From Candidatus Kaiserbacteria bacterium RIFCSPHIGHO2_01_FULL_54_36 (GTDB lineage Bacteria > Patescibacteriota > Minisyncoccia > Phycocordibacterales > UBA2100): DNA of 64,000 bases. The position numbers and the translations under genes are program-made. The notes below the pieces were generated by a model. The model was not told the DNA's origin. It made no database searches and saw only the letters and a list, made by a program, of their open reading frames with translations. Below are positions 4,002-63,539 of this stretch, one piece after another; position 1 is the stretch's first letter; the number at the start of each line of letters is the position of its first letter. The stretch is taken from positions 4,912 to 68,911 of the forward strand of contig MFKV01000007.1 in the NCBI GenBank assembly GCA_001781105.1. The letters run 5' to 3'.

Positions 4002-5258
4002 TTATGTTGCGGCGGCAGTGCCGGCTACGTAGCCCGTTGTCCAGCACAGCTGCAAGCTGTAGCCTCCCGATGGGCGATTGATATCGAGGATATCGCCGAC
4101 GAGGAAAAGATTTTGATATTTTAGCGAGCGCATCGTTTTGAAATCTATTTCCGTAAGCGCGGCGCCTCCGGCGACGATGACTGCCTTGTCCATGCCGAGC
4201 AGATGTTTGGCATCGAACCCGAGATGTTTGAGCGTTTTCATGAGTCGGATGCGGGCCTCGCGCGTCACGCCGTTGCAAAAAGCCTCTGGATCGATCTGCG
4301 CTTTTTGGAGCACGAGTGGGACGAGCGCCGGTGCGAGAAATTCGCTAAGGGAATTCTTGATCATTTTGTTGCTGTTGTGCTTGAGTGCGTTTTGGAGCAC
4401 GGCATTCACTTTTTCGTATCCCATATCGGGCAGGAGATCGATCTCAAGGTGCACCGCGCCGTATTTTAGAAGCTCACCGATCTCGTGGCTCATATTGAGA
4501 ATGCCGGGGCCACTGAGGCCTACATGCGTAAAAAGTATTTTACCTCGTGCCTGCGCCTGCTGTACCTCATTCTGATAGAGCGTGATCTTGGCATTTTGCA
4601 CGCTCACGCCCGCAGCGCGCTTCGCCGGATCCATGAGTGCGATGGGTACGAGCGCGGCGCTCGCACCTAGCACCGTGTGGCCGAGATCACGCAGCCACGC
4701 ATATCCATCGCCGGTCGATCCTGTCTCTGGATGCGACAGACCGCCGGTCGCGAGGATGAATTTCTTTGCGCGGATCGTCTTACCGCCTTTCAACTCTGCC
4801 TCCGTAATATTGCCACCGCGGTGCTGGAGGCGGACGACTGTGGCGCTTGGCATCACCGTCACGTTCGTCGTTTCCAAATAGTTCACAAGTGTATCCCAGA
4901 CGGATCGAGCGGTATTGGAAAGCGGGAAGACGCGCTGATTTGCCTCCTCTTTGGTGGGCATGTTGCGAGAATGGAAAAATTCGAGGGTTTTGTCCACGCT
5001 CCACTGCGAAAAGGGGGAGAAAAGGAATTTACCGCTGTCTTTAAATTTGGCGAGGAGCTTTTTATTGTCGAGCTCAGCATTGGTCACGTTGCACCTGCCA
5101 CCGCCGGTGATGAGTAGTTTCTTGCCGAGCGACTTGTTCTTTTCGATGAGGATGACCTTAGCCCCTTTTTCGGCCGCCCTGCCGGCTGCCATCATGCCTG
5201 CCGGTCCGCCACCGATGACGGCGACGTCCCAGATCTCTTCCTCGGCCCTTGCTTTCAT
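4002..5258 (-). CDS. NAD(P)/FAD-dependent oxidoreductase, HI0933/BaiN-like flavoprotein family
   Basis: N-terminal VAVIGGGPAGMMAA Rossmann motif and typical length. Confidence 0.75.
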   Translation of the reverse strand: MKARAEEEIWDVAVIGGGPAGMMAAGRAAEKGAKVILIEKNKSLGKKLLITGGGRCNVTNAELDNKKLLAKFKDSGKFLFSPFSQWSVDKTLEFFHSRNMPTKEEANQRVFPLSNTARSVWDTLVNYLETTNVTVMPSATVVRLQHRGGNITEAELKGGKTIRAKKFILATGGLSHPETGSTGDGYAWLRDLGHTVLGASAALVPIALMDPAKRAAGVSVQNAKITLYQNEVQQAQARGKILFTHVGLSGPGILNMSHEIGELLKYGAVHLEIDLLPDMGYEKVNAVLQNALKHNSNKMIKNSLSEFLAPALVPLVLQKAQIDPEAFCNGVTREARIRLMKTLKHLGFDAKHLLGMDKAVIVAGGAALTEIDFKTMRSLKYQNLFLVGDILDINRPSGGYSLQLCWTTGYVAGTAAAT

Positions 5259-31636: not shown

Positions 31637-32587
31637 ATGGCAGCCTCAGCTATCGCAGTACAGAACATCCAGAAATCATACGGTAATGTCCATGCGTTGC
31701 GCGGAATTGATCTCGAAGTAGAGAAAGGTACCATTCTCGGCCTCCTCGGGCCCAATGGCGCGGGCAAGACCACCTTGGTGCGTATCCTCACGACCTTGCT
31801 GCAGCCAAGCGGCGGAAGTGCATGGGTAGAGAGTTTTAATGTCGTCAAAGATGCGGCATATGTGCGCCAGCTCATCGGTCTCGCTGGCCAGTATGCGGCA
31901 GTCGATGAAAACCTGACTGGACGAGAGAATTTGATAATGGTAGGGAAGCTTTACCATCAAACGCTTCGCGAGGCGGCGGCGCGGGCGCACGAGCTCCTCG
32001 TGCAATTCGGCCTCGAAGACGCTGCTGATCGCAGGCTCAAGACCTACTCCGGTGGCATGCGCCGCCGCCTCGACCTCGCAGCATCATTAGTCAACAAGCC
32101 GCCCGTGCTTTTTCTTGACGAGCCAACGACCGGCCTTGACCCCGGCAGCCGGCTTGCACTCTGGAAAATAATCCGCGACCTGGTGCGCGACGGCACAACG
32201 GTACTCCTCACAACGCAATACATGGAAGAGGCTGATCATTTGGCAGATCGGATCATCGTGATCGACAAAGGAAAGATCGTCGGGAGTGGCACGCCAGCGG
32301 AGCTCAAAAGAATGGTCGGAGGCGACGTCCTTGAGATCCACCTCGTTGATCCATCACGCACAGCAGACGCTGCGATCGCGTTGCGCTCGCTTGAGAACGG
32401 AGCGATCGAAATTGATGCCGAGCAGGGGATCCTCAGGATGCCTGTCGAAGACGGGACGGGAACCTTGCCCAAGGCGATCCGCGCGCTCGATATTTCGCAC
32501 ATTGCGATCGTAGACCTCTCGCTTCGTCGACCGACGCTTGATGAAGCTTTCTTGAAACTGACCGGCCACCGCGCCGACATGATGTAA
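31637..32587 (+). CDS. ABC transporter ATP-binding protein (DrrA-like)
   Basis: Walker A GPNGAGKTT, signature LSGGMRRRL, Walker B LLFLDEPT. Confidence 0.9.
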   Translation: MAASAIAVQNIQKSYGNVHALRGIDLEVEKGTILGLLGPNGAGKTTLVRILTTLLQPSGGSAWVESFNVVKDAAYVRQLIGLAGQYAAVDENLTGRENLIMVGKLYHQTLREAAARAHELLVQFGLEDAADRRLKTYSGGMRRRLDLAASLVNKPPVLFLDEPTTGLDPGSRLALWKIIRDLVRDGTTVLLTTQYMEEADHLADRIIVIDKGKIVGSGTPAELKRMVGGDVLEIHLVDPSRTADAAIALRSLENGAIEIDAEQGILRMPVEDGTGTLPKAIRALDISHIAIVDLSLRRPTLDEAFLKLTGHRADMM

Positions 32588-32589
32588 AT

Positions 32590-32725
32590 ATGCCCGGCAG
32601 GACAATTTCGAATTGCTTTGTATGAATATTCATCAACGTATGAAAGAAAGACTAACCAATGATTTTTGCAAAACGTTCGCAGTTGAAACTGCAGCAGGAA
32701 TTATTCGAAATTGTACTAGCCGGGT
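32590..32725 (+). mobile_element. MITE-like intergenic repeat, copy 1 (136 nt, imperfect ~22-nt terminal inverted repeats)
   Basis: Starts ATGCCCGGCAGGACAATTTCGAAT 2 nt after the ABC ATPase stop. Ends ATTCGAAATTGTACTAGCCGGGT, immediately followed by the permease ATG. Confidence 0.7.
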
Positions 32726-33526
32726 ATGAACAAGCAACTGAAACGCTGGAACCCATGGTGGACACTTACTGACCTCCTCACGATGGTGGAGCGCAACATC
32801 ACCGGCTATCGCCGGGTGCCGCAGCTCCTTATCTTTTCTACCATTCAGCCAGTCATGTTCCTTTTGCTTTTTACCTATGTCTTCGGAGGCGCGATCCGCA
32901 CCGGCGGGAGTAGCTCGTACATCAATTATCTTTTGCCTGGTATCCTTGCGCAAAGTGCGGTCTTCGGAGCGATACAGACGGGTGTGGGCCTCACCGTGGA
33001 TCTCTCACGGGGACTCATCGATCGTTTCCGCTCGCTGCCGATGGCACGAAGTGCCGTCCTTTTGGGCCGCACGATCGCAGACATGCTGCGTAATGTGTTC
33101 GTGATACTCCTCATGCTCCTCGTGGGCTACCTGATAGGTTTTCGACTGGAAGGTACGATTTCAGACGCCGTCTCTGCGATCGCGATCCTGCTTCTCTTTG
33201 GTTTTGCCTTCTCCTGGGTCTCGGCCTGCATCGGCATGGTCGTCAAGAATACAGAGACAGCACAGGTCGCCGGATTCATCTGGGTATTCCCACTCGTTTT
33301 CGCAAGCGCCGTTTTCGTCCCCGTCGAATCTATGCCCGACTGGTTGCAGCATTTTGCAAAGTGGAATCCGGTGACGATCACAGTGAATGTAGTGCGCGCG
33401 CTTCTTCTAGATTCTTCGAGCGCGCAAGACACCGCCACGTACGCGTGGGAAGCACTTGCCTGGATCGCGGTCATACTCATCGTCTTCATGCCTTTGGCAA
33501 TTTGGCTGTATCGCAAAAGTGAATAA
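32726..33526 (+). CDS. ABC-2 type transporter permease
   Basis: Six TM segments and ABC-2 family architecture, directly downstream of the ATPase. Confidence 0.8.
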   Translation: MNKQLKRWNPWWTLTDLLTMVERNITGYRRVPQLLIFSTIQPVMFLLLFTYVFGGAIRTGGSSSYINYLLPGILAQSAVFGAIQTGVGLTVDLSRGLIDRFRSLPMARSAVLLGRTIADMLRNVFVILLMLLVGYLIGFRLEGTISDAVSAIAILLLFGFAFSWVSACIGMVVKNTETAQVAGFIWVFPLVFASAVFVPVESMPDWLQHFAKWNPVTITVNVVRALLLDSSSAQDTATYAWEALAWIAVILIVFMPLAIWLYRKSE

Positions 33527-33669
33527 GCCGGGTGTGCCCGGCAGGACAATTTAGCATAGCTTTTGTCGTGGCCTAGTTCGTACAGCGTTATATCTATTTC
33601 GGTCTCCGGAAATGTAACGTACCGCGAATATCCTGCAGCAGAGACCATGCCAAATTGTACTAGCCGGGT
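33527..33669 (+). mobile_element. MITE-like intergenic repeat, copy 2 (diverged interior, conserved ends)
   Basis: Begins immediately after the permease stop with GCCGGGTGTG-CCCGGCAGGACAATTT. Ends CCAAATTGTACTAGCCGGGT followed by GTG. Confidence 0.6.
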
Positions 33670-33718
33670 GTGCATACTGCCGTTCCCAACAGGGGGGCAG
33701 TTTGGTATTCTTCAGCCC

Positions 33719-41040: not shown

Positions 41041-43683
41041 ATGGCAGAAAAAGATATAGGGGCAGATAAGATCGTCATAAAAGGCGCACGGACACATAAT
41101 TTGAAAAATGTGTCAGTGGAGATTCCGCGCAATAAAATGGTGGTGTTTACGGGACTTTCAGGCAGCGGCAAGTCCTCGCTTGCGTTCGACACGATCTTTG
41201 CCGAAGGGCAACGAAAGTACGTTGAGTCTCTTTCAGCATACGCGCGACAATTTTTGCGCCAAATGCAAAAGCCCGATGTTGACGAGATATCCGGCCTCTC
41301 ACCGGCAATTTCTATCGACCAAAAGAGCCGCTCCAACAATCCTCGCTCCACCGTCGCGACCATAACTGAGATCTACGACTACCTGCGTGTCCTCTACGCT
41401 CGCGTCGGGAAGCCGCACTGCATAGAGTGTGGGCGAGAAGTGCGAAAGCTTTCCAACGAGGAAATCCTGGAGTCTGTGCTAAGCATCGTTGAAGGCGCGA
41501 GAAAGGGCGATGGTCGACCTCGTAGGTCGACCATGCTGACGAAAGGAGTTTCGAATGCGAAGATCCGCATCAGTGCTCCGGTCGTGGTGGGCCGCAAGGG
41601 CGAGTACTACCAGCTCCTCTACGACATGCTCAATAAAGGATTTGAGAAAGTTATTATTGATGGACAAGAAACGTCACTACGCACACGAATAGATCTCAAG
41701 AAACATTTCAAGCACGACATAGATATTGTGGTAGACGAAATATTCATCTCTGAGTTTACCGATGATGCAAAAGCCGCACACGAGCGCGCCAGCGAGGCTA
41801 TTGAGCGGGCGCTGCATGAAGCGGGCGGCCTGGTAAAAATTACCGACGCAGAAGGGCAATCACGCATCGTATCCGCAAAATTCATGTGCCCGTACGACGG
41901 GTTCTCGTTCCCCGAGATAGAGCCGCGGCTCTTTTCCTTCAACTCGCCATACGGCGCGTGCCCGGAGTGCAAAGGCTTGGGCACGAAGTATTTTTTCGGC
42001 GATGAGCCGTGCGATATATGCCAGGGCGCCCGCTTGCGTCCCGAGGCGCTCAATGTGTTTCTGGGCAAAGTGGAGGAGCCGGCAGAGCACAATGGTCCAG
42101 CCATAGGGACCAATATCGTACATCTTTCGTCGCTTTCGATTGAGGACGCGATGGATTTCTTCAACGGGCTGAAGCTCACCAAGAAAGAACAAGAGATCTC
42201 AAAGGCCGTCATCAAAGAGATCACGAGCCGCCTCCAATTCATGCTCAATGTCGGTATCGAGTACCTAACGCTCGATCGTAAGGCCAATACGCTCTCAGGG
42301 GGTGAGGCGCAGCGCATTCGGCTTGCTTCTCAACTCGGTAGCGGGCTTGTGGGTGCCTTGTACGTGCTCGATGAGCCCACCATAGGACTTCACCAACGCG
42401 ACAACGACAAGCTCATACAGACCCTTCAGCGCCTGCGCGATCTCGGCAACACCGTGCTCGTCGTCGAACACGACGAAGACACGATATTCGCTTCTGATTA
42501 CATCGTGGATCTTGGCCCCGGTGCCGGTGTACACGGCGGTGAGATCGTCGTGTCGGGATGGCTAGACGATCTTTTGACCGCGAAAACCAATAAGTCGGGC
42601 TCTCGAACGCTCGGATATTTGCGCGAAGAGGAAGCCATTCCTATACCGGAGAAACGTCGCACCGCCGACCGAGGGAAGATAAAAATACGCGGCGCTTCCA
42701 AATTCAATATCCAGAATATGAATATTGATGTACCACTCGCGAAGTTCGTCGCCGTTTCGGGAGTTTCCGGCTCGGGCAAGTCCACATTTCTGTATGAAAT
42801 TCTCCATCGCAACCTGCAAGCACGCTTCGACAAGCGTTATCGAACTGCGAAAACCTACAATGCAAAAGAATTTTCCGGCACCGAGTATCTCGGCCGGGCG
42901 ATATTGATAGATCAATCGCCGATCGGGCGCACGCCCCGCTCGAATCCTGCCACCTACACGGGAGCCTGGACCCACATCCGCGATATGTTCGCGATGTCGG
43001 AAGAGGCCCGAGCGCGCGGTTGGGGCCCCGGGCGCTTCTCGTTCAACGTGAAAGGTGGGCGCTGCGAAGCGTGCCAGGGCAACGGCCTCATTGCCGTAGA
43101 GATGCACTTCTTGCCGACCGTGTATGTCACCTGCGACGTGTGCAACGGCAAGCGATTCATGAAAGAAACACTGGAGGTCAAATTCAAGAACAAAAACATT
43201 CACCAGATACTTTCGATGACCGTCGAAGAAGCGCGAGCATTCTTCGATGATATTCCCGCAATCGCAGACCGCCTGCAGAGCTTATCTGACGTTGGGCTCG
43301 ATTACCTTGAGCTCGGGCAAAGCGCGACAACGCTTTCCGGCGGGGAAGCACAGCGCGTGAAGATCGCCTCAGAGCTGTATCGCCCACTCATCCAGAAGAG
43401 CATCTACTTGCTCGATGAGCCGACGGTCGGCTTGCACTACGACGACGTCGCGAAGCTTATCCAAATACTGCAGAAGCTTGTCGAGCGTGGCAACACGGTC
43501 GTCACGATCGAGCACAACCTAGATGTCTTGAAATCCGCGGATTACATCATTGATATGGGCCCGGAAGGCGGATCCGCGGGCGGCGACATCGTCGCGAAGG
43601 GGACTCCTGAAGAAGTTTCTAAAACTGATGGTTCGCACACAGGCTATTACTTGAAACGAGTTTTGAAAAAATCCCGCAGGTAG
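41041..43683 (+). CDS. uvrA: excinuclease ABC subunit A
   Basis: Two ABC ATPase modules ([18 protein letters not shown]), zinc-finger CxxC pairs, LSGGE signatures. Contains the in-frame 25-nt palindrome at 41510..41534. Confidence 0.95.
41510..41534. repeat. 25-nt perfect palindrome ATGGTCGACCTCGTAGGTCGACCAT, in-frame inside uvrA (encodes DGRPRRSTM)
   Basis: 10-nt arms containing two SalI-type GTCGAC cores. Identical copies at 47670 and 60160; a compensatory variant at 45770. Confidence 0.85.
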
Positions 43684-43835: not shown

Positions 43836-46800
43836 TTATGAACGATACTCCTCCCACGACTTCGCTTTCAACCCATTGCCTTTCTGTTCCGCAAGCGCTG
43901 TCACGAAGGCCTCTGCGAGCTGGCGGTTGGTGATGAGCGGAATGTTCATATCTACCGCTTTGCGGCGGATGATGGAGCCGTCGGTCGTCTCGCCGGCGAA
44001 GGCACGCGTCGGGATATTGATGATGAGATCCATTCTACCGAGCGCCTCGGAGACATTGGGCGCTTTTTTACTGCTGATCTTGTAGAGCTTTTCACATGGC
44101 AGGCCAGACTCATGCAAATATTCTGCAGTATGCTCTGTCGCAAAGAGTTTGAATTTCGTATTAGAAAGCAGTTTCATCGTTTCCAGTAGCTTCACCTTGC
44201 TCTCCTCGCCGCCGATTGAGACGAGGATATTTTTGCGCGGCAAGCGAAAGCCGGCAGCCATCATGGACTTGAGGAGTGCTTCAGAGTAGGAATCCCCGAA
44301 ACAGGCGACTTCGCCTGTGGACGCCATTTCTACACCTGTCCGTGGGTCAGCGCCTTTGATGCGGCTGTATGAAAATTGTGGCGATTTGACTGCAACACAA
44401 TCGAGTTCGACCGTGCGGTAGTTGCCCGAGACATCCTTGCCAAGCATTGCACGCGTAGCAATGTCAATGAAATTGTGTCCGGTGACTTTGGAAACGAAGG
44501 GGAAGCTGCGCGAGGCGCGCACGTTGCATTCGATGACTTGCAAGCGATTATCCTTTGCTATGAACTGCATGTTGAAGGGCCCGGTGATCTTGAGGGCTTT
44601 GATAATTGCTTTGGTGATCTCTTTGGCACGGCGGATAGTCTCCAGATACGTGCGCTGCGGAGGAAGCACTACCGTAGCGTCACCAGAGTGCGTGCCGGCA
44701 TTCTCCACGTGTTCGGTAATGGCATAGATAGCGAGTGTGCCGCGAGAAGCGACGCCATCGATCTCGATCTCCCGCGCGTTCTCTATGAATTTGGATATGA
44801 CGACCGGATGTTCAGGCGACATGATGGCCGCGCGGTCCAAAAAATTCTGAAGCGTTTTCCTGTCGTACGCGACCTTCATTGCCGCGCCTGACAGGACGTA
44901 TGACGGGCGCACGAGTACGGGGTACCCGATTGTCTCAGCGACAGCTGCTGCCTGTGAGGGAGAGGTGACTTCCGTCCATGCCGGCTGCTCTACTCCGAGC
45001 GTATCGAGAAGCTTGGAGAACACATGCCTGTCTTCCGCGCGGTCGATATCCTCCGGATTCGTGCCGAGAATTTTGATCTTGTTCTTATGGAGTTTAAGCG
45101 CAAGATTGTTGGGGATCTGGCCGCCGGTCGAGACCACGACCCCCTCGGGCTTTTCGAATTCCACGATATCGAGAATGCGCTCGAGCGTAAGCTCTTCGAA
45201 GTAGAGCCGATCCGACATGTCGTAGTCGGTCGAGACAGTCTCCGGATTCGAATTGATCATAATGGTGCGCTTACCGCAGGCCTTCAGCGTCTTCAGCGCC
45301 TGCACGCACGACCAGTCGAACTCGACCGATGACCCGATGCAGTATGGGCCCGAACCCAGCACTGCAACCTGCTTTTTTCCCGGGATGACGTCGTGTTCAG
45401 TGCCATGATAGGTGAGATACAGATAGTTCGTCTGCGCGGGGAATTCGCCTGCGAGCGTATCGATCTGTTTGACTACCGGCAGAATCCTTAGCTTTTTGCG
45501 CAGTGCGCGTACAGACTCTTCGTTAATCTTTTTTATCACTGCAATTTGCGCATCAGAAAATCCGAGCTTCTTTGCTGCTTGCATCGTTTGCTTATTGAGG
45601 CGGTTCTTCGAGATGTGACGCTCGAACTCTACGATGTTGCGCATCTTCTCCAAAAACCACCGATCGATCCCCGAAAGTTTGTGAATCTTCTCTACCGACG
45701 TTCTTCTACGAAATGCCGCTGCGATCGCAAAAATTCTTCGGGTCGTAGGTATCCTGACCTCTTTTTCGCATGATGGACCTCGTAGGTCCATCATTGTTGC
45801 CGGAAGCGAGAATCCACTCGCACCTACATTTAGCATGCGAAGCGCTTTTTGCAGCACCTCTTCGAACGAGCGGCCGATCGCCATCACTTCGCCTACGCTT
45901 TTCATTTCTGTCCCGATACGTTGTGCGGCATTCTCAAATTTGCCCAAGTCCCAACGCGGCATCTTGAGCACCAAATAATCGAGCGCTGGCTCGAAGCAGG
46001 CGGTCGTGATACCCGTGACGGAATTTTTGATCTCGGGCAGCGTGTAGCCGAGTGCGAGTTTGGCCGCGACGAACGCCAACGGATAGCCGGTCGCCTTCGA
46101 AGCGAGTGCCGATGAGCGGCTTAGGCGCGCATTGACCTCGATGACGCGGTAATCTGCTGTCTCGGGGTGCAGTGCATATTGGATATTGCACTCGCCGACG
46201 ATTCCCAAGTGTCGAATGGTCCTGATAGAAATTTCGCGCAGCCGATGGTATTCCTCATTGGAGAGTGTTTGAGAAGGAGCGACTACCATGCTCTCGCCTG
46301 TATGTATTCCCATCGGATCGATGTTTTCCATGTTGCACACGGTGATGCAGTTATCGGCCCTGTCGCGCACGACTTCGTATTCGACCTCCTTCCAGCCGCT
46401 TAGGTTTTCCTCGATGAGTACTTGCGGAGTCGACCTGAATACTTCCGAAAGCTTCGCGGACAGTTCCTCCGTATTTTTTACCATTCCCGACCCTTCACCA
46501 CCGAGAGCAAATCCCGCGCGCATCATGACGGGGTAGCCAATGTCCGCCGCGGCTGCGAGTGCCTCTTTCGTATTTTTTGCAGCGCGGCTGCGAGCAGTCT
46601 TTACTTCTATCTCATGGAGGCGCTTCACGAAAAGGTCGCGATCTTCCGTGTCGCGAATCACCGATACAGGCGTACCAAGTACGCGCACGCCGAATTTCCT
46701 GAGAGTGCCACTTTTCTCGAGCGCGAGGCCGAGGTTGAGCGCTGTCTGGCCACCGAATGAGAGAAGGATCGCGTCAGGCTTTTCTTTCTTGATCACCTGC

Positions 46801-47018: not shown

Positions 47019-48112
47019 ACCTTCTTCAATGAGCGGATGAAGTCGTCGAAGATCCAGGCGGTATCTGTGGGGCCGGGCGAGGCCTCGGGGTGGAATTGCA
47101 CCGAGCGCCAGGGCTTGCTCTTGTGCCGTATCCCTTCGTTGGAGCCGTCATTGGCGTTCACAAACCACTCTTCCCACCCTTCGGGAAGCGTTTTTCCGTC
47201 TACGGCGAAGCCGTGATTTTGGGAGGTGATGTAGCATTTACCCTGAGCGGAGTCGAAGGGCCGGCCACCCTTTAGTTCAATGCATGGCTGGTTTTGGGAG
47301 CGATGGCCGTATGTAAGCTTGTACGTCGAGGCACCCGCCGCGAGCGCCAAGAGCTGGTTGCCAAGGCACACTCCCAGTATCGGTTTGTTGTCCTTCATAG
47401 CTGCGCGAATATGCCCTATCGGGATGCCGCACTGCGTCGGATCACCAGGGCCGTTGGAGAGAACGAGCGCATCGTACTTATCGGAAGTGAAGTCGTAATC
47501 CCACGGTACTCGCGTCACGGTGGTTTCGGGTCGTATGAGCGAGCGGACGATGTTCTCTTTCATTCCGCAATCGAGCGCAATTATTTTGATCGGGCCAGTA
47601 CCGTATGTCTTCTTTTTCCTCGGACTGACTTTTGCAACAAGATTTTCGTCGTTTGGATCCTTGAACTCCATGGTCGACCTCGTAGGTCGACCATGCTCCA
47701 ATCGCCCCAGCATTACCCCGTGTTCGCGGAGCTTCTTCGTAAGTGCGCGGGTGTCTACTCCAGTGATCGCCGGCACACCGGAGGCTTTGAGCCATTCGGC
47801 AAGTGAGTGCTTGGCATCGTGATGAGAATAGTTCTCCGAGTATTCCGAAACGACGAGCCCTGCTATTTGTATCTTGGACGACTCGAAGTTTTTGTCGGGC
47901 TTGCCCTTCGAAGCCTTGGCGAAGGAGGGCACGCCGTAGTTGCCGACCAGCGGATAAGTGAGTACTACGATCTGACCGGCGTATGAAGGATCTGAAAGAC
48001 TTTCAACGTAACCCGTCATCCCAGTGTTGAAAACGACCTCACCAGGGACGTTCTTCGGAGCACCAAAGCTCTGGCCCTCGAACACTGAACCGTCTTTGAG
48101 AATCAATTTCAT
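47015..48112 (-). CDS. carA: carbamoyl-phosphate synthase small subunit
   Basis: CPSase small-chain N-domain plus class I GATase (Cys-His-Glu triad context GVCLGNQLL). Overlaps the carB start by 4 nt. Confidence 0.95.
   Translation of the reverse strand: MKLILKDGSVFEGQSFGAPKNVPGEVVFNTGMTGYVESLSDPSYAGQIVVLTYPLVGNYGVPSFAKASKGKPDKNFESSKIQIAGLVVSEYSENYSHHDAKHSLAEWLKASGVPAITGVDTRALTKKLREHGVMLGRLEHGRPTRSTMEFKDPNDENLVAKVSPRKKKTYGTGPIKIIALDCGMKENIVRSLIRPETTVTRVPWDYDFTSDKYDALVLSNGPGDPTQCGIPIGHIRAAMKDNKPILGVCLGNQLLALAAGASTYKLTYGHRSQNQPCIELKGGRPFDSAQGKCYITSQNHGFAVDGKTLPEGWEEWFVNANDGSNEGIRHKSKPWRSVQFHPEASPGPTDTAWIFDDFIRSLKKV
47670..47694. repeat. 25-nt palindrome ATGGTCGACCTCGTAGGTCGACCAT, in-frame inside carA (encodes HGRPTRSTM on the gene strand)
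   Basis: Identical to the uvrA copy. Lies in the linker between the CarA N-domain and the GATase domain. Confidence 0.85.
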
Positions 48113-51722: not shown

Positions 51723-51794
51723 GGGCCAGTAGTTCAGTGGTAGAACGTCTCATTTGCAATGAGAAGGTCGGGGGTTCGATTCCTCTCTGGTCCA
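51723..51794 (+). tRNA. tRNA-Ala (anticodon TGC)
   Basis: Manual cloverleaf: acceptor GGGCCAG/CUGGUCC with the G3:U70 alanine identity pair, anticodon loop TTTGCAA, T-loop TTCGATT, discriminator A. No encoded CCA. Confidence 0.8.
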
Positions 51795-51797
51795 CAA

Positions 51798-54032
51798 ATG
51801 AAAAATCTCTACGAGCATATCGCAACCGTTGCGAAAGCTGAGCCGAAAAAGGTAGCATTGATTGGAACAGATGAGAAGGGAAATAGCGTCGAGGAGATCA
51901 CGTATGCAGAACTGCTAGAGAAAATACAGGCAGCGGCGGCAGAGCTAAAAGAGTTAGGACTTGAAAGAGGTGACAGGATAGCGCTCGCATTTCGTAATTC
52001 CCCCGTGCTCCTTATATGGAGCTGGGCGGCTTGGGCGAGTGGGATCGTGACGGTGCCAATGGATACCAAGCGCGATACTCCCGAACTTTACGAATACAAG
52101 ATTAATCTCAACAAAGCCAAAGTCCTTATCCTCGAGCGCGGCATCCAGGCAGTGAAGCTCCCCGGCGTCCGCATCAAAGTCCATACTGAATTTGATTCAC
52201 GGCAAGGCAAGGCCTTGCCGTACCCTGTTGGCTGGGAAGGGGGGCTTGGGCATCAGGCGCTTGTTCTTTTCACTTCTGGCACGACCGGACACCCGAAAGG
52301 TGCCATGCTTTCGCTTGAGAATCTCATTGTGAACGCCGAGGGAATCCGTGAATGGCTGCGCATCACGGGCGACGATACATTTCTCGTCAACCTTCCGCTC
52401 CACCACATCAACTCCACCACCTTTTGTCTTTCTGTACTCCTCGCGGGAGGCACCATCGCTATTCCGCCCAACTATTCCAATTCGCATTTTTGGCATCAGA
52501 TGGGAAAGACAGGTGCGACTATCTCGTCGGTCGTGCAATCGATTGTATTCGACCAGCTCCACCGCAAGGCGGAGTTCGAGGCCCTGAAAGACAAGATCAA
52601 ACTCAACAGGATCCAGATCGGTTCGGCGCCGGTCGTCGCGCAATCGGTGCAAGAATTCAAAAAGCAATTCGGCATCCCGCTTTATCAAGGTTACGGTCAG
52701 ACGGAAACAGCGCTTCGCGTCACGGGCGTACCCATGGACATTCCGGATCCACTGTATGCGCAGTTGGTTGACGAGAATTCGATAGGTACTCCGATGGCAT
52801 GGGCAGACCTGCAAATCACCGATGACGAAGGCAAGATACTGGGCGAGGGCGGTGAGGGTGAGCTGGTGGTGAAAGGCCCTGCGGTGATGGAAGGATATCT
52901 CGGGCGCGAGCCGGCGTTCCGCGACGGATATTTTCTCACGGGCGATATCGGCTACTACAAAACAATTGATGGCAGGAAATACTTTTATCTCAAGGGCCGG
53001 AAGCGCGAGATCATCATCAAGGGCGGCGTCAATATTTCACCGGTTGCGGTAGAGAACTCCCTGAAGCGAATTTCCCCGGACATCGAGCAAGTCCACGTGG
53101 TTGCTGTGCCAGATGAGCGCTACGGTGAGGAAGCCGGTGCTGTCATCTCGTGGAAAGAGGGAATTGACGAAGATCGTGCGAAGCGGCAGCTCAAAACTGC
53201 GCTTCTACTCGGCTCTCCATATATCAGTGCATACGAGACGCCCAAGTACATTACCTCGCTTCCAGTCGCAGAGCTCCCGATGACTTCCACAGGCAAAGTC
53301 CAGCGCAGCGTCCTCAAAACACAGCTTCCATACGAAAAATTCGAATCGATCTACGGCCTCCTCAAGACTACTGACTATCGCTTCACGGTTTTGCATCGCT
53401 ATTCGAGGTGGCAACAAGCGTCCCTCGATCTCCACAACCAATGTTGGGCGCCGCTTAGAATGGACAAAGGGGAATATGACAAATTCATAACCCGCCCACT
53501 GACTATTCTTGCCGCCAATCCCGATGAGTCTCTTGCCGGACAGATCGCCGTTGTTCGTACCAATCTTTCCGAAGCAGAGATCCTCAAGAAAACATATTCA
53601 GAGTTGGTTGCCGAAAGCTTCGACAGGACAGGCAATACGCTTGTGTGTGTTTCTATTTGCAGCGCCGACTATTCGCCAAAGACAATTCCTGATGTAACTA
53701 AGCATCCAAGCGCAGACGACGTTCGCGCGTATGTAGAAGCAGGCACCGACCCAGTAATGAAATTCCATCAGAAGCCAAAAGGTGGGCTCTCGGAAGGTGC
53801 GAAACTTATAGATGTTATCGAAAATGGCCGGCCGGAAGACAGAAGCTCGCTGGGGTACAACATGCTCCTCAAATATCCTGAGCCCTCGGATAACGTTGCG
53901 ATAACTCCCGGGGCCCCGATCTCCAACCAGCTTATCGAAATCGTTTTGCTCATCGCGCGCGATCTCGGCATCAAAAACGTCTACGCCTACTCTCGCCCCG
54001 GTGGCTTGGCTGCGTATTTATCCCGAGCGTAG
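51798..54032 (+). CDS. AMP-dependent synthetase/ligase (adenylate-forming) fused to a ~240-aa C-terminal domain of unknown function
   Basis: TSGTTGHPKG and YGQTE adenylation motifs in the first ~500 aa; the C-terminal part has no recognised motif. The ATG lies 3 nt after the tRNA-Ala discriminator. Confidence 0.75.
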   Translation: MKNLYEHIATVAKAEPKKVALIGTDEKGNSVEEITYAELLEKIQAAAAELKELGLERGDRIALAFRNSPVLLIWSWAAWASGIVTVPMDTKRDTPELYEYKINLNKAKVLILERGIQAVKLPGVRIKVHTEFDSRQGKALPYPVGWEGGLGHQALVLFTSGTTGHPKGAMLSLENLIVNAEGIREWLRITGDDTFLVNLPLHHINSTTFCLSVLLAGGTIAIPPNYSNSHFWHQMGKTGATISSVVQSIVFDQLHRKAEFEALKDKIKLNRIQIGSAPVVAQSVQEFKKQFGIPLYQGYGQTETALRVTGVPMDIPDPLYAQLVDENSIGTPMAWADLQITDDEGKILGEGGEGELVVKGPAVMEGYLGREPAFRDGYFLTGDIGYYKTIDGRKYFYLKGRKREIIIKGGVNISPVAVENSLKRISPDIEQVHVVAVPDERYGEEAGAVISWKEGIDEDRAKRQLKTALLLGSPYISAYETPKYITSLPVAELPMTSTGKVQRSVLKTQLPYEKFESIYGLLKTTDYRFTVLHRYSRWQQASLDLHNQCWAPLRMDKGEYDKFITRPLTILAANPDESLAGQIAVVRTNLSEAEILKKTYSELVAESFDRTGNTLVCVSICSADYSPKTIPDVTKHPSADDVRAYVEAGTDPVMKFHQKPKGGLSEGAKLIDVIENGRPEDRSSLGYNMLLKYPEPSDNVAITPGAPISNQLIEIVLLIARDLGIKNVYAYSRPGGLAAYLSRA

Positions 54033-54976: not shown

Positions 54977-55030
54977 ATACATATCCACACGATCGCGCAT
55001 TTAATCGCAATTTTGGGTGATAATAGATGA

Positions 55031-55396
55031 ATGAAATACGCGGCACTCCTCGGATGGGGTATTTGTATATATGCGGTCATGACGCTCGCATGGGCAGGGA
55101 TCGCGCTCTATGGGCTCGGAGGCACATTGACCGGCCGTATACTCGGGCTCATTGTGCTCATAGTCACGCTCACTATCGCCGGGCGCTCGCTCAAATTCCA
55201 TTCGTGGAAAGACATCGTGCCATATTCGCTGCTGTGGGTCGTCATCATGGCCTTATTTGACGCGGTCTATAGCGTGCCGTTTGGCGGGTGGGGGATCTAT
55301 GCCGATTGGAACTTGTGGGTGGGCTATGCGCTCGTGGCGGCAGTCCCGATGCTTGCACCCCTAACGAGAATAGTGCCAGACGGGAGCAGGGCCTGA
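55031..55396 (+). CDS. hypothetical 4-TM membrane protein
   Basis: Hydrophobic profile only. Its stop TGA is immediately followed by MITE-like copy 3. Confidence 0.45.
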   Translation: MKYAALLGWGICIYAVMTLAWAGIALYGLGGTLTGRILGLIVLIVTLTIAGRSLKFHSWKDIVPYSLLWVVIMALFDAVYSVPFGGWGIYADWNLWVGYALVAAVPMLAPLTRIVPDGSRA

Positions 55397-55397
55397 C

Positions 55398-55534
55398 ATG
55401 CCCGGCAGGACAATTTCGAATCGCCTTGTATGAATATTCACCAGCGTGTGATGGAAAAAAGTGCGACAGTTATTTTGCAAACCAGAAATAGTCGAATCTG
55501 CGGCAGGAATTATTCGAAATTGTACTAGCCGGGT
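55398..55534 (+). mobile_element. MITE-like intergenic repeat, copy 3 (137 nt)
   Basis: Starts ATGCCCGGCAGGACAATTTCGAAT and ends ATTCGAAATTGTACTAGCCGGGT, followed by the ATG of the next gene. About 85% identical to copy 1. Confidence 0.7.
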
Positions 55535-56689
55535 ATGCGCTCGCTCGCACTTCACAGGTTCCTTTTACGCTTCGCACTCGCGGGGGCAAATGTCTTTGCC
55601 TGGATATTCATATTTCAATTTTTCTACCTCATCGAGCCCGATATCGGGCACGCGCTCGCGCGCGTCGCGCTGCTCTACGCGCTTTCGCAGGTGATCACCT
55701 GCCTTTTGACGCCCTATGCCGTGCAAACGCTCCGCGACGGAGCCCGCCCGCTTTTGCTTATCGCCGTTCTTTTCGCGTCGTCTGCGCTGGTCCTTCTTGG
55801 AGGCACCTTCGCAGCGTATTGGAATGCTTCTTACGCGTCGGTGGGTATCGCGGCGTATGCTATAGCGCTTGGCGCGTACCGTGCGTTCTATTTCGTCCCG
55901 TATGAGATAGAAGTGCGTGGGAATGCTAAGCGACCCCGCAGCAGATCCGCAGCTTCGGAACTTCTCATCGCTCTCGCACCGTTCATCGCAGGCATTTTTA
56001 TTGTAAGCACAACACATGGCCCCGTCTGGGTCTTGTATATAGCCGCCGGGCTCATTGCGCTTTCCGCTATCCCACTGCTATACCTGCGCGATATACACGA
56101 AGGCTTTACTTGGGGGTATCGCGAAACGTTCGAGCGACTTTTCCTTCCGTCGCATCGCCCGCTCCTTCGCGAGGCCATTATGGAGGGAATTTCAGGCGCG
56201 GCGTTGCTCCTCTTCTGGCCTATCGCCGTGTTCCTCATTGCAGGATGGTCATATGGGATGGTCGGCATAATTCTCTCACTCACCTTTCTCATCGCGATCC
56301 TGGGCCGCAAACTTGTGCGCAGAGGTATCCGCCGAGCCGGTTTACATCGATCACAGATCCTGAACGCGACCTTCGCCGCCACTCCATGGTTGTTCCGCAT
56401 CGTCGTCGGCAACCCGTTGGGTGTCATATTTGCCGACTCGTATTTCTATACGACGACGCCCCGGCGCATAGGCGTTGATGCCCTTGTATTCGAGCAGGCC
56501 GCCGACGCAGGCTCATACGTGGATGAATACACTGCGCTGAAAGAGATGGGGCTAGCGCTCGGAAGGATCGCGGCATGTATCCTCGTTGCAGTGGTTTCTC
56601 TCTATGTATCGCTCCCGATCGCGCTCGTCGCAGTATTTCTCTTGGCAGCACTCGCCTCCGTCGTCGTCGCTCTGCGCCCGCGTTCATAA
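55535..56689 (+). CDS. hypothetical polytopic membrane protein (about 10-12 TM, transporter-like)
   Basis: Hydrophobicity pattern. Its start codon is supplied at the end of the repeat. Confidence 0.5.
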   Translation: MRSLALHRFLLRFALAGANVFAWIFIFQFFYLIEPDIGHALARVALLYALSQVITCLLTPYAVQTLRDGARPLLLIAVLFASSALVLLGGTFAAYWNASYASVGIAAYAIALGAYRAFYFVPYEIEVRGNAKRPRSRSAASELLIALAPFIAGIFIVSTTHGPVWVLYIAAGLIALSAIPLLYLRDIHEGFTWGYRETFERLFLPSHRPLLREAIMEGISGAALLLFWPIAVFLIAGWSYGMVGIILSLTFLIAILGRKLVRRGIRRAGLHRSQILNATFAATPWLFRIVVGNPLGVIFADSYFYTTTPRRIGVDALVFEQAADAGSYVDEYTALKEMGLALGRIAACILVAVVSLYVSLPIALVAVFLLAALASVVVALRPRS

Positions 56690-60061: not shown

Positions 60062-60664
60062 TCAACGCCTGCTTTCTATCGCGCTCTTGATGGTGTCGGG
60101 ATCTGCGTATTCCAATTCGCTGCCGGTCGAGAGCCCGCGGCCCAGCGCCGTAATCTTCAATGGTCGACCTCGTAGGTCGACCATTTTCTTTCTGACTTGT
60201 TCTGCAGTCGCGTCGCCCTCGGGATTCGCAGGGAATGCGAGTATGATTTCCATTAATCCCGCTTTTGTTCGAGCGGGCACGGCCTCAAGAAGCTGCTTCA
60301 TGCGCAAATTGTTGCCCGTATCGCTTGCGAGCGAGACAGTACCGCCGAGTACAAAGTAGTGCCCGCGGAAATTATGCGAATGTTCGAGGGCGGCAAGGTC
60401 CGCGTCACTTGCGACGACAGCGAGAAGTGAGGCATCACGTCCAGGATCCGTACAGATCGCGCAGACTTTCTCTTTTCCGCTAAAGAAGCGCATGCACTCT
60501 GCACACTGGTGCACCGAGCCGCCAAGCGATTGCACCGCATCCATTAGTTCGCGACGCGTCGCAGCGGAGGAGCGCAGCAAAAATTGCACGAATCGTTGCG
60601 CTTGGCGCGGACCGATACCGGGAAATCTTTCGAATAATTGAGTCAGTCGTTCTATCGAGTCCAT
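60062..60664 (-). CDS. recR: recombination protein RecR
   Basis: HhH motif FPGIGPRQAQR, C4 zinc finger CAECMRFFSGKEKVCAIC, Toprim domain. Contains the in-frame 25-nt palindrome at 60160..60184. Confidence 0.9.
   Translation of the reverse strand: MDSIERLTQLFERFPGIGPRQAQRFVQFLLRSSAATRRELMDAVQSLGGSVHQCAECMRFFSGKEKVCAICTDPGRDASLLAVVASDADLAALEHSHNFRGHYFVLGGTVSLASDTGNNLRMKQLLEAVPARTKAGLMEIILAFPANPEGDATAEQVRKKMVDLRGRPLKITALGRGLSTGSELEYADPDTIKSAIESRR
60160..60184. repeat. 25-nt palindrome ATGGTCGACCTCGTAGGTCGACCAT, in-frame inside recR (encodes MVDLRGRP)
   Basis: Identical to the uvrA and carA copies but read in a different frame. Confidence 0.85.
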
Positions 60665-60671
60665 ATATATG

Positions 60672-60761
60672 CCAATCTACGAATCATACGAATTCTACGA
60701 ATAACTACAAATGAACTACTATTCGTAGCCATTGGTAGATTGGAATTCATTTGTAAATTGG
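60672..60761 (+). repeat. composite inverted-repeat unit A (~90 nt) filling the recR-dnaB intergenic gap
   Basis: Ends CCAATCTACGAAT ... ATTTGTAAATTGG are inverted repeats. Internal 9-mers TCTACGAAT and ATTCGTAG are reiterated in both orientations. Confidence 0.65.
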
Positions 60762-60765
60762 AACT

Positions 60766-62160
60766 TCAAAACGGCGATTCGCCAGAGCCTGCAACTTCCG
60801 TTTCTTCAGGTTTGTAATCGCCGAAGTCGCTCCTATCAATAGAGAGGAAGGTCGTCTTTTCTTCGTCGAAGCGGAGCTCCACTTTGCCGACCGGCCCGTT
60901 GCGATGTTTTTCTACCAAGATCTCGGCAATGCCGGGCCGGTCGGAATTCTCATTCATCTTGTCGTCACGATGGATGAACATTACGACATCGGCGTCTTGT
61001 TCGATGGAGCCCGAATCGCGAAGATCCGATAGCCGTGGGCGGCCTCGTCGTTGCTCAACCGCGCGTGATAACTGCGAAAGTGCCAAGACGGGGATCTCAA
61101 GCTCGCGCGCCATAGCCTTGAGTGAGCGGGAGATCTCAGTGATCTGCTGTACCAGATTGTCGCTCGAGCGCGAATAGGTGGGGGTGATGAGTTGCAGATA
61201 ATCCACGATGATGAGCCCGAGGTCTTTTTCCATTTTGAGCCGGCGCGCGACACTACGCATTGCAAGGACGGTCGTCGAAGCCTTGTCGTCAATATAGATC
61301 GGTGCCTCAGCCAAAACTCCCATACCTGACTGCAATCGCTCGAATTCGTCTTCATCTTTTATCTTGCCGGTGCGAAGCCGCCATGAGTTGACGCCGGCCT
61401 GCGCGGCAAGCATGCGATCCACAAGCTGCTGGGAGCTCATCTCGAGCGAGAAGATGCCGACGGGCACGTTGTACTTCGTTGCGCTCTGGCGTGCGATGTC
61501 GAGCGCAAGGGCGGTTTTGCCCATTGAGGGGCGGGCGGCGAGTATGACGAGGTCGGATTTTTGGAAGCCGGCGAGCAAATTGTCGAGCTGAGGAAAGCCC
61601 GATGGCACGCCGCGAATGGAGCCGCTGTGCTTCTGGAGTCCCTCAAGCCGCTCCCATGCTTCAGCGAGCTCGTCTTTGATGGCAGTGAAAGAGCGCAGCA
61701 TCGGCGTCTGCGTCACGGAGAAAACTGCAGACTGTGCCTCGTCGAGGATCGTCTCGATATCCCGGTCCTCTTCAAAGCCCAGTTCTCCGACCTTCGCCGC
61801 GGCATCAATAAGGCTGCGCAATACGAATTTCGTCTGCACCCCTTGCGCATAATGCCGTGCCGAGCCGGGGCTCGCGGCTGCACCAACCATCTCGGAGAGG
61901 TATGCCGCCCCACCGATCTCGTTCAAGAGTTTGCGCTCCTTGAGCTTGCTAGAAAGCGTTACGACATCGATCGGTTCACCCTTCGCAAAAAGCGCAAGCA
62001 TGGCGTCGTATATAGTGCGATGTTTGCCGGCATAGAAGGAGTCCACGCCGACCAAGTCTGCGACCTCGTAGATCGCATTTTGGTTGAGCATGAGAGCTCC
62101 AAGGAGAGCTCGCTCCATTTCTATGTCTTGCGGCGGCGCTTTTACGCTGCTGGTTCCCAT
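60766..62160 (-). CDS. dnaB: replicative DNA helicase
   Basis: Walker A GARPSMGKT and DnaB N- and C-domains. 464 aa with no intein. Confidence 0.95.
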   Translation of the reverse strand: MGTSSVKAPPQDIEMERALLGALMLNQNAIYEVADLVGVDSFYAGKHRTIYDAMLALFAKGEPIDVVTLSSKLKERKLLNEIGGAAYLSEMVGAAASPGSARHYAQGVQTKFVLRSLIDAAAKVGELGFEEDRDIETILDEAQSAVFSVTQTPMLRSFTAIKDELAEAWERLEGLQKHSGSIRGVPSGFPQLDNLLAGFQKSDLVILAARPSMGKTALALDIARQSATKYNVPVGIFSLEMSSQQLVDRMLAAQAGVNSWRLRTGKIKDEDEFERLQSGMGVLAEAPIYIDDKASTTVLAMRSVARRLKMEKDLGLIIVDYLQLITPTYSRSSDNLVQQITEISRSLKAMARELEIPVLALSQLSRAVEQRRGRPRLSDLRDSGSIEQDADVVMFIHRDDKMNENSDRPGIAEILVEKHRNGPVGKVELRFDEEKTTFLSIDRSDFGDYKPEETEVAGSGESPF

Positions 62161-62241: not shown

Positions 62242-62337
62242 CTAATCTACGAATCATACGAATTCTACGAATGTCTACAAATTCGCGTGTATTTCATTCG
62301 TAGCTATTCGTAGATTGGCATCCATTTGTAGATTCGG
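62242..62337 (+). repeat. composite inverted-repeat unit B, upstream of dnaB and of the divergent HTH gene
   Basis: 29 nt identical to unit A (AATCTACGAATCATACGAATTCTACGAAT), then the same 9-mer motifs. Confidence 0.65.
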
Positions 62338-62424: not shown

Positions 62425-63447
62425 ATGCTTTCATTTTCACCTAAGTCCGCCGCCAAAGACCTCCTCGCGGGGCTTCCTGAGCGATCCCGCCGGGTACTCG
62501 TTGATCGCTTTGGCCTGGGCACAAAGGGCGAGCGCCGCACCCTTGATGCGATCGGCCAGGAGTACGGGATAACCCGCGAACGCATCCGCCAGATCGAGAA
62601 TCACAGCATTACCTCGGTACGGGATTCCGATGCGTACGCTGCCCTCGTTCAGAACTGGGAGAATTTGAAAGCGGCCGTTGCCGCGCTTGGCGGTGTGCTC
62701 TCTGAAGAGACGATCCTTCACGAGCTTGCCAAAAATGAAGCCGACCGCAACCACCTTCTGTTCCTTCTCAGCGTCGGTCACCAATTCGACAACCGCCGTG
62801 AAGATGCGGATTACAAGGCTCGCTGGCACGTTGACGAGCAACTGGCAGAGGCGGTGGAAACGGCACTTTCCAATTTGTATGAATCGATCGAACCCAACAA
62901 GCTCACCGGGGAAGAGGAGTTCCTCGACCTGTTCGGCAAGCACTTGAAGCAAGAGGGCGTAAAGAACAAAGCACCGGAGATGCTCCCGCGCTGGCTTCAG
63001 ATCTCGAAGCGCATCGGGCGCAATCCGCTTGGCGAATGGGGCAGGCAAGATTCTCCGCACGTGCGCATCAAGAACACCCGCGATTTCGCGTATCTCACGC
63101 TCAAACGCCACGGCTCGCCGATGCACTTCACCGAGGTCGCAAAAAATATAGAAAAATTGTTCGGGCGCAAGACGCATCCTGCAACGACCCACAACGAGCT
63201 CATCAAAGACGGCCGATTCGTGCTCGTAGGCCGCGGGCTCTATGCGCTCAAGGAGTGGGGGTACGAGCCGGGCGTCGTGCGGGATGTCATTTCCGGGATA
63301 CTCAAGCGTGAAGGCCCCCTCTCGCGCGAAGAGATCGTCGAGCGCGTAAAGCGCGAGCGCTACGTGAAGGACGCGACCATCGCGGTCAATCTCCAGAACC
63401 CAATGTTCACTCGCACTTCGGAAGGGAAGTACTCGCTTTCAAAGTAA
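62425..63447 (+). CDS. DNA-binding protein with an N-terminal sigma-70 region-4-like HTH and a C-terminal HARE-HTH-like domain
   Basis: RRVLVDRFGLG...RTLDAIGQEYGITRERIRQIE is a region-4 signature. C-terminal ...RFVLVGRGLYALKEWGY matches the HARE-HTH pattern. Confidence 0.65.
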   Translation: MLSFSPKSAAKDLLAGLPERSRRVLVDRFGLGTKGERRTLDAIGQEYGITRERIRQIENHSITSVRDSDAYAALVQNWENLKAAVAALGGVLSEETILHELAKNEADRNHLLFLLSVGHQFDNRREDADYKARWHVDEQLAEAVETALSNLYESIEPNKLTGEEEFLDLFGKHLKQEGVKNKAPEMLPRWLQISKRIGRNPLGEWGRQDSPHVRIKNTRDFAYLTLKRHGSPMHFTEVAKNIEKLFGRKTHPATTHNELIKDGRFVLVGRGLYALKEWGYEPGVVRDVISGILKREGPLSREEIVERVKRERYVKDATIAVNLQNPMFTRTSEGKYSLSK

Positions 63448-63539
63448 GTTCCAATCTACAAATAACACCAATCTACCAATGGCTACGAATAGTGGCTCAT
63501 TTGTAGTTATTCGTAGTATTCGAATGATTCGTAGATTGG
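63448..63539 (-). repeat. composite inverted-repeat unit C (reverse-complement orientation), immediately after the HTH gene stop
   Basis: The reverse complement is about 90% identical to unit A over ~90 nt. Confidence 0.65.

Follow-up and report, generated by a model that had tools for sequence, protein, structure and literature searches.

A MITE-like hairpin element placed on start codons in a Kaiserbacteria genome, and the putative termination-reinitiation relay that crosses it

The Correia/NEMIS elements of Neisseria, the ERIC/IRU elements of enterobacteria and the RUP elements of S. pneumoniae are bacterial MITEs (miniature transposable elements with inverted repeats) that lie in transcribed intergenic regions. 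We analyzed a comparable element, ~137 nt long and bounded by inverted repeats, in a 64,000-nt stretch of DNA from Candidatus Kaiserbacteria bacterium RIFCSPHIGHO2_01_FULL_54_36 (GCA_001781105.1, contig MFKV01000007.1, positions 4,912 to 68,911 of the forward strand; hereafter the window), focusing on its third copy at 55398-55537 on the + strand, a span that includes the flanking ATG triplets. The element resembles the three families in its size class (100-150 bp), its terminal inverted repeats, the hairpin expected in the mRNA and its putative short flanking duplications, as well as in its many dispersed copies, its co-transcription with neighboring genes and its lack of a transposase gene of its own. 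By contrast, Correia/NEMIS, ERIC/IRU and RUP elements duplicate TA, occur in either orientation and show no tie to start codons, and none is known to maintain a chain of open reading frames (ORFs) leading up to the downstream start codon. Such a chain is found here, and the element is probably best explained as a non-autonomous, MITE-like repeat that sits on start codons and is tolerated within operons through a relay of translation termination and reinitiation.

Rickettsia palindromic elements (RPEs), as Ogata and colleagues are said to have described in 2000, reportedly lie in frame within protein-coding genes. Like them, the element studied here is a palindromic repeat of a small, dense genome that appears to survive where it is translated and not disruptive. 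RPEs, however, become part of the protein, whereas this element is intergenic and carries separate, throw-away mini-ORFs, with an in-frame TAG or an overlapping TGA dividing it from the downstream gene. Its junctions recall termination-reinitiation coupling, in which stops and starts form ATGA or TGATG overlaps or are 1-6 nt apart (PMC6728339, PMC10666635, PMC12548453), and an element-free ABC transporter junction described below is an ATGA overlap too; the known cases join two real genes, whereas here a mobile element would supply one to three non-conserved mini-ORFs as the link. A further parallel is offered by translated leader peptides and upstream ORFs controlling downstream initiation, in that a short ORF ends beside the main start codon and translation of the main ORF would depend on it, but here there is no conserved peptide or one-pathway logic, and the short ORFs belong to a mobile repeat present in many unrelated operons. 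In the searchable literature we found no description of such elements in Kaiserbacteria or elsewhere in the candidate phyla radiation (CPR).

The window holds exactly three copies, all on the + strand and ~139 nt long, and a covariance model of the family detected these and no decayed ones. The 22-mer GCCCGGCAGGACAATTTCGAAT occurred three times at ≤3 mismatches, compared with 0.00 expected from shuffled sequence, and the first 22 bases of the copy at 55398 were found again at 32592 and, with two mismatches, at 33536. An earlier note on this DNA had described a third MITE-like copy between the TGA of a gene for a four-transmembrane (4-TM) protein and the ATG of a gene for a 384-aa membrane protein, and had given its ends as identical to those of copy 1 and its interior as about 75% identical. 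The ORF map and the repeat search bore out the position; the ends are indeed identical (TGCCCGGCAGGACAATTTCGAAT ... ATTCGAAATTGTACTAGCCGGGTATG), and identity is 81% overall and 71% in the interior, near the figure given in the note. The arms of this copy form a stem of ~22 bp, with a predicted fold of -44 kcal/mol (z = -3.8).

Removal of duplicates from the matches listed in DNA of Kaiserbacteria and related Patescibacteria left 74 distinct loci. Copies were collected with a two-ended, exact-end pattern, so that the diversity of the family is undersampled. In reference genomes this pattern matched 30 loci: the related genome FULL_53_29 (MFKT01) holds at least 24 copies, and others lie in FULL_55_37 and further metagenome-assembled genomes of Patescibacteria; a metagenome scan yielded at least 80 additional loci. 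The common layout is (T/C)ATG, CCCGGCAGGACAATTTCGAAT, a variable segment of ~90 nt, ATTCGAAATTGT-ACTA-GCCGGG T and a second ATG. The core, CCCGG...CCGGG(T), measures ~131 nt within copies of 135-141 nt. Apart from mini-ORFs that are not conserved, the element contains nothing coding, and it lacks a transposase gene.

At 70 of the 74 listed loci, the 3' end of the element (GCCGGGT, then ATG) coincided with the start codon of a long gene, so that the exact boundary match seen at 55535 recurs at most other copies. The ORFs opened at the 3' ATG comprise 65-958 codons or run off the contig end, and the element had the same orientation at all 70 gene-start loci (binomial p = 2e-21). Counts on the 5' side were taken over 68 loci, those concerning gene-associated copies over 70. 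The 5' ATG lies 1-5 nt past the upstream stop, overlaps it, or follows a -10 box by 6-8 nt. A co-directional ORF stopped within 12 nt of the 5' ATG, or overlapped it, at 48 of the 68 loci; many of the remaining loci carried a TAnnnT box resembling a -10 element 6-8 nt upstream of the 5' ATG. The downstream genes, named from readings of their N-termini and not from database calls, include those for ribosomal proteins L2, L22, L24, L15 and S8, FtsZ, AspRS, GyrA, TopA, PGK, LeuA/LeuB, RodA and ABC permeases. The earlier note had proposed that the element prefers membrane or transport genes. This part of its reading did not hold: polytopic membrane proteins make up ~23% of the 71 downstream proteins on our list, and because these proteins are functionally unrelated, both a membrane-gene preference and a regulon were ruled out.

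Comparison of orthologous junctions indicates that the element is mobile and MITE-like, because in other species these junctions are empty or filled by other families. The junction of the 4-TM gene and the 384-aa gene, whose product belongs to an MFS-like family, was empty in L038, the closest element-free relative (66% protein identity), where it reads TGA-C-ATG-gene with the ATG at the position of the window gene's start. It was also empty in L033 and L034 (TAA-CT-ATG). The same junction held a copy of the present family (family 1) with a different interior in L019, a family-1 copy 17 codons further upstream in L030, where the protein's long form (see below) begins, and copies of families 2 and 3 in L031 and L039, respectively, which share the layout but have unrelated arms. 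Likewise, the junction between the ABC ATPase and permease genes that holds copy 1 in the window was empty in L122 and L123, where stop and start overlap as ATGA, and was occupied by family 1 in L021 and L121 and by another family in L120, while the site of copy 2 was empty in L120-L123. That different families have repeatedly filled both of these junctions points to a scarcity of permissive sites. Direct repeats of 3-5 nt were shared by the two flanks in every case, usually as ATG/ATG or TATG/TATG, and were extended to TATGA or TATGG on both sides at eight loci. Where the flanks deviate they do so together: GTG/GTG at copy 2, TATC/TATC at L017, and GTAT/GTAT at L117, the last within a -10 box. 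The label MITE-like given in the earlier note is thus upheld by the many copies, the flanking repeats and the differences in presence between species.

That note had also held that the element supplies the start codon of the downstream gene. Since L038 has the same ATG after the same TGA-C, the boundary ATG appears instead to be the gene's own start, duplicated on insertion; what the insertion adds, on this comparison, is the second, 5' ATG, with which the mini-ORF chain begins. As evidence that would speak against it, the note had named a different start, independent of the element, in homologues. Homologues without an element do have a start of their own, at the same ATG in L038, L036 and L037 and 17 codons upstream in the long form of L033-L035; in this narrow sense the evidence does speak against the note's reading. 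Homologues of the 384-aa protein (P0001-P0120) come in this long form, with 17 additional N-terminal residues (MRSFSLREPSLASPLRS...), and in a short form, and several database entries that appear short are long forms called at an internal ATG (L033-L035). We considered whether the element had taken the place of the 398-aa long form's first 17 codons and ruled this out; element-free short forms exist (L036, L037, L038). We likewise ruled out that ATG-CCA-ATG in L038 is an excision footprint; it is a plain empty site, because its protein, read from the first ATG, lines up position by position with those of the window and L019.

How genes are started in this genome bears on what an insertion at a start codon would do. 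Among 59 ORFs of the window, Shine-Dalgarno (SD)-like motifs 5' of the ATG were at background level (13.6% versus 9.9%), and TAnnnT boxes ending 5-9 nt before the ATG were ~9-fold enriched (34% versus a background of 3.9%). Initiation in this genome appears to depend on leaderless starts and stop-start coupling; a survey found the anti-SD motif missing from about half of the 16S rRNAs of Parcubacteria (PMC9297842). In Haloferax and E. coli, termination-reinitiation was found to require an overlap or a very short gap and was almost lost at ~20 nt (PMC10666635, PMC6728339). Since short gaps are needed, a 134-nt untranslated insert between coupled genes should be strongly polar. At most copies placed before the ribosomal-protein genes (L2, L22, L24, L15, S8), a co-directional ORF stops a few nucleotides upstream, and polarity there would presumably be harmful.

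We propose that the element inserts at the (T)ATG of a gene start, or persists nowhere else, and that this triplet is duplicated. The right-hand ATG would remain the start codon of the gene, while the left-hand ATG would take over the old start position, just past the upstream stop codon or in overlap with it or, in leaderless transcripts, at the 5' end. An untranslated spacer of 134 nt would probably cut the downstream gene off from ribosomes, and the element would avoid this by being translated itself: the left ATG would open a series of one to three short ORFs, linked through ATGA overlaps, that run across both arms of the hairpin, and the last of them would stop either at the right-arm TAG, which precedes the true ATG by 6 nt, or at a TGA that overlaps this ATG, and there the ribosome would reinitiate. 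For the copy at 55398 the predicted path leads from the upstream TGA (55394-55396) to AUG 55398 (11 codons), through the UGA/AUG at 55430 (32 codons) to UAG 55526-55528, and on to AUG 55535. The second mini-ORF begins in an ATGA overlap with the stop of the first, and its TAG is in the same frame as the true ATG; the successive junctions of 1, -4 and 6 nt are of the kind seen in termination-reinitiation coupling. The earlier note's alternative that the element is retained where it gives coupled expression fits these data well, in that the mini-ORF chain links the upstream stop to the true start.

An unbroken chain from the 5' ATG to the true start was present at 66 of the 70 gene-associated loci, made up of one ORF at 34 loci, two at 30 and three at 2, and ending at +6 (36 loci), -4 (28 loci) or -7/-8 (2 loci) relative to the true ATG. 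When interiors were shuffled (300 replicates, sets of 34 copies), the hand-off was kept in 23%, or in 13% with restarts at ATG only, and the best replicate reached 16/34; interior indels of 1-2 nt left it in 21-31%. With the core inverted in silico the hand-off was found in 0/59 copies versus 57/59 in the forward orientation, the inverted left arm reading ATG CCC GGC TAG, so that selection alone could yield the orientation bias. Subfamily A comprises 29 copies that differ from their consensus by 10-38 interior substitutions. They contain 1 stop in the used frame versus 84 and 30 in the other two, and ORF 2 is open in 28/29 copies compared with ~52% after equal numbers of random substitutions. 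In this neutral test, random substitutions were applied to each real copy in the number observed for it; real copies served as the starting point because the subfamily consensus mixes 136- and 137-nt forms. Variability in subfamily A is equal over the three codon positions, and each peptide is different. Openness of the frame therefore appears to be selected and the peptide not, given 28/29 open copies versus ~52% and no codon-position periodicity. Finally, the frame class matches the gene that follows: the frame ending in the TGA overlap (+1) was used before 22 of 29 genes that start with ATGA versus 1 of 30 others (Fisher p = 3e-9). Copy 2 and the copy at L017, which have no gene at the 3' end, have broken chains, as expected at neutral sites.

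These counts bear directly on the simpler idea of an ordinary selfish MITE unrelated to translation, its pattern arising from shared ancestry and from insertion specific for site and orientation. Family-1 copies do descend from one ancestor, whose single open frame could have been inherited; the (T)ATG-centred flank repeats could reflect an integrase that recognizes TATG in one orientation, and a few copies do persist with broken chains. Inheritance, however, would hardly account for 66 of 70 copies keeping the hand-off through 10-38 interior substitutions plus indels, when random substitutions break about half, nor for a frame class that follows the fourth nucleotide of the gene. The GTG, TATC and GTAT flanks speak against a strictly ATG-specific integrase, and the same bridging ORF recurs in unrelated families: a single ORF of 34-47 codons with its stop 4-8 nt before the true ATG in F2, F3 (three loci), F7, F8 and a family-1 variant. 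We therefore regard a MITE indifferent to translation as unlikely.

The arms are 21-22 nt long with one small bulge, and 98.5% of cells are paired across 37 copies. In a covariation test of this closing helix (37 copies, 500 shuffles), six pairs were altered on both sides versus 2.0 +/- 1.0 in shuffles, and 0/500 shuffles reached six. The compensating changes convert CGAAT/ATTCG to GGCAT/ATGCC and to CCAAT/ATTGG; three more helix pairs alternate between G-C and A-U, and one variant has GGT/ACC in place of GGC/GCC. Through the bulge that makes them imperfect, which is AGG on the left and ACTA on the right, the left arm stays open for reading and the right arm gains its stop. The interiors form several mutually unalignable subfamilies, and across copies they have no consensus structure or conserved core, the closing helix alone being conserved. 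A search of the whole window against Rfam at the gathering score returned two tRNAs only; a search with the element at E up to 10 returned only a chance match to RT-2 at 11 bits, and no promoter-like or terminator-like sites were found inside the element.

A covarying helix directly 5' of start codons, with the AUG partly sequestered, is what a cis-regulatory leader RNA governing a regulon (a riboswitch, thermometer or protein-binding operator) might look like. That reading is nevertheless very improbable, given downstream genes that are unrelated in function, some of them within ribosomal-protein operons, an interior with neither core nor Rfam relative, direct-repeat flanks, and presence that differs between close species at the same junction. 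The same stem raises the question of RNA processing. Correia elements of Neisseria are cleaved by RNase III. A paper on CPR ribosome biogenesis discusses this enzyme (PMC12641178). Cleavage of a long, near-perfect ~22-bp stem whose base lies directly at the AUG could split the cistrons and leave a leaderless-like downstream mRNA beginning at or near that codon, in a genome that appears to rely on leaderless starts. Processing would, however, leave the open frames, the ATGA relays and the match of frame to gene context unexplained, and the inverted orientation, which would give an equally good stem, was never seen. As the whole explanation it is therefore quite improbable, although the hairpin may have a role in place, for instance in RNase III processing, in addition to the relay.

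The mode of movement is a separate matter, on which the pair of strongly conserved inverted arms, with a free interior between them, invites comparison with REPINs and attC sites, which likewise have conserved inverted arms, a poorly conserved spacer, a strand that forms a hairpin and positions between co-directional genes. An element of this kind would move as a folded single strand by means of a tyrosine (HUH/RAYT-like) or integron-type recombinase. The strict orientation fits such a mover, as do the short core (G)TATG(A) shared with empty targets (GGTATGA in L122 and L123) and the lack, in the loci examined, of any transposase or longer element with the same ends. The arms nonetheless lack the terminal GTAG of REP doublets, despite the similar inverted-doublet architecture; the ends read CCCGGC ... 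GCCGGG, with no GTTRRRY/RYYYAAC core as in attC. Unlike REPINs and attC sites, the element has flanking direct repeats, of which the non-ATG ones resemble ordinary target duplications, and is dispersed among syntenic housekeeping genes without cassette arrays; nor was a link to a RAYT or an integrase seen in the loci examined. Single-strand movement is accordingly doubtful, and we infer that a DDE-type transposase moves the element.

Several observations weigh against a mobile element carried by a relay. Chains are broken at L003 (7390) and L081, and the 5' ATG is lost at L025 and L119; because these four loci persist, as does sister family F6 (L041), which has no bridging ORF, the relay cannot be absolutely required. 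Translation of the mini-ORFs and reinitiation after them are read from evolutionary patterns, and ribosomes would need to unwind a stem of -44 kcal/mol. The relay statistics treat kin copies as independent, and since the copies are related by descent the tests overstate independence, a concern softened by at least eight different ORF layouts and five other families. On the side of mobility, the duplication is not cleanly delimited: the base 5' of the 5' ATG is C and not T at 13 of 68 loci, and the base before the 3' ATG is T except at L117. Neither a transposase nor a longer element or an unpaired end was found in the window and 123 loci (~0.9 Mb of related DNA), and viral contigs gave no match to the element. 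A search for inverted repeats of 18 nt lying 0.5-3.5 kb apart returned noise and pairs of neighboring copies only. The arms are also much more conserved than the interior, shared junctions included. Near-invariant arms around drifting interiors are most simply explained by continued turnover, in which only copies with intact ends move and dead copies are deleted. A scan of 318 kb with the covariance model detected no decayed or reverse-oriented copies, only the exact-end copies and one family-3 copy.

Other families with unrelated arms share the hairpin layout ATG, CCC...GGG(T), ATG. They were observed at L031 (2866-3002), L039 (549-697), L075 (-, 987-1139), L088 (-, 4793-4945), L010 (-, 4161-4276), L120 (~1071-1200) and L041 (199-334), and all except the family at L041 have a single bridging ORF (34-47 codons, stop 4-8 nt ahead of the true ATG). 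A family of 113-116 nt at L002 (4535-4647) and L008 (3816-3931) has the symmetric ends CCCCGTTAGAAAT...ATTTCTAACGGGG and the flanks TGGA/TGGA and TGAA/TGAA. In F4 of L002, an internal ATG-led ORF enters the downstream gene in frame via the junction GTG, giving an N-terminal extension and not a relay. In L006 (1074-4276, equal to L090 784-3986), two opposed family-1 copies, each before its own gene, surround a 3.2-kb segment in a composite-like arrangement. We tentatively suggest that family 1 and at least five sister families could represent an undescribed class of mobile DNA fitted to SD-poor, leaderless genomes, which would sit on start codons and bring their own relay into essential operons, ribosomal-protein genes included. 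The relay would show how a selfish repeat could spread in a very small, dense bacterial genome without killing its host, and hosts might have co-opted some elements to set the ratio of neighboring gene products. The evidence on translation start in uncultured CPR is indirect and comes from evolution only, and it points to leaderless initiation and stop-start coupling rather than SD pairing. In annotation, the elements give rise to systematic "intergenic" gaps of 137 nt and to spurious small ORFs, and they account for some apparent differences in start site among orthologues.

The features of the copy at 55398, its neighbors and the other two copies are listed in Table 1. The order of an RRM gene, the 121-aa gene and a gene for a 38x- or 398-aa protein is kept in relatives. 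In copy 1 the mini-ORFs have 11 and 35 codons, and the final TGA overlaps the ATG of the permease gene (ATGA).

Table 1. Positions of the element copies and associated features in the window
Feature	Position	Strand	Remarks
-10-like box GATAAT	55019-55024	+	6 nt 5' of the 4-TM gene ATG; read from sequence; suggests a promoter giving a leaderless start of a two-gene transcript
Upstream 121-aa 4-TM ORF	55031-55396	+	stop TGA 55394-55396
5' ATG	55398-55400	+	left copy of the duplicated start triplet; start of mini-ORF 1; 1 nt past the upstream TGA
Left arm CCCGGCAGGACAATTTCGAAT	55401-55421	+	pairs with right arm
Mini-ORF 1	55398-55433	+	MPGRTISNRLV, then TGA; reads across left arm
Mini-ORF 2	55430-55528	+	32 codons (MNIHQRVMEKSATVILQTRNSRICGRNYSKLY), then TAG; crosses interior and right arm
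Variable interior	55422-55511	+	no alignment possible with the L019 and L030 copies at this junction
Right arm ATTCGAAATTGTACTAGCCGGG plus T	55512-55534	+	ACTA bulge holds the in-frame TAG
384-aa polytopic membrane protein gene	55535-56689	+	MFS-like family; its ATG, 55535-55537, is the duplicated triplet's right copy
Copy 1	32590-32728	+	between ABC ATPase (31637-32587) and ABC-2 permease (32726-33526) genes
Copy 2	33534-33672	+	in the spacer past the permease stop; GTG/GTG flanks; no gene at 3' end; mini-ORF chain broken

Copy 2 is bounded by a 12-nt direct repeat, AGCCGGGTGTGC, at 33527-33538 and 33662-33673. The upstream repeat, directly 3' of the permease stop, resembles the solo 3' end of an older element, such as a nested or tandem insertion and a later deletion might leave. 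Further upstream of the third copy, the listed start of a 757-aa AMP-binding ORF (51759-54032) falls within a tRNA-Ala gene (51723-51795); the ORF probably starts instead at the ATG near 51801 (MKNLYEH...), the point at which similarity to the related locus L030 sets in.

Two other repeats were observed in the window. A perfect 28-nt palindrome, ATGGTCGACCTCGTAGGTCGACCAT (variant ATGATGGACCTCGTAGGTCCATCAT), occurs at 41510-41537, 45770-45797, 47670-47697 and 60160-60187, within four unrelated long ORFs that include CarB-like, CarA-like and RecR-like ones. It is read in frame, for example as MVDLRGRP, and may be a tiny palindromic insertion element of the in-frame kind. In addition, clusters of the heptamer TACGAAT, spaced by 9 nt and in both orientations (CTACGAATC ATACGAATT CTACGAATA), lie at 60674-60725, 62244-62310 and 63484-63535. 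They flank a DnaB-like gene (60766-62160) and an ORF at 62425-63447, and could be operator arrays or origin-like boxes.

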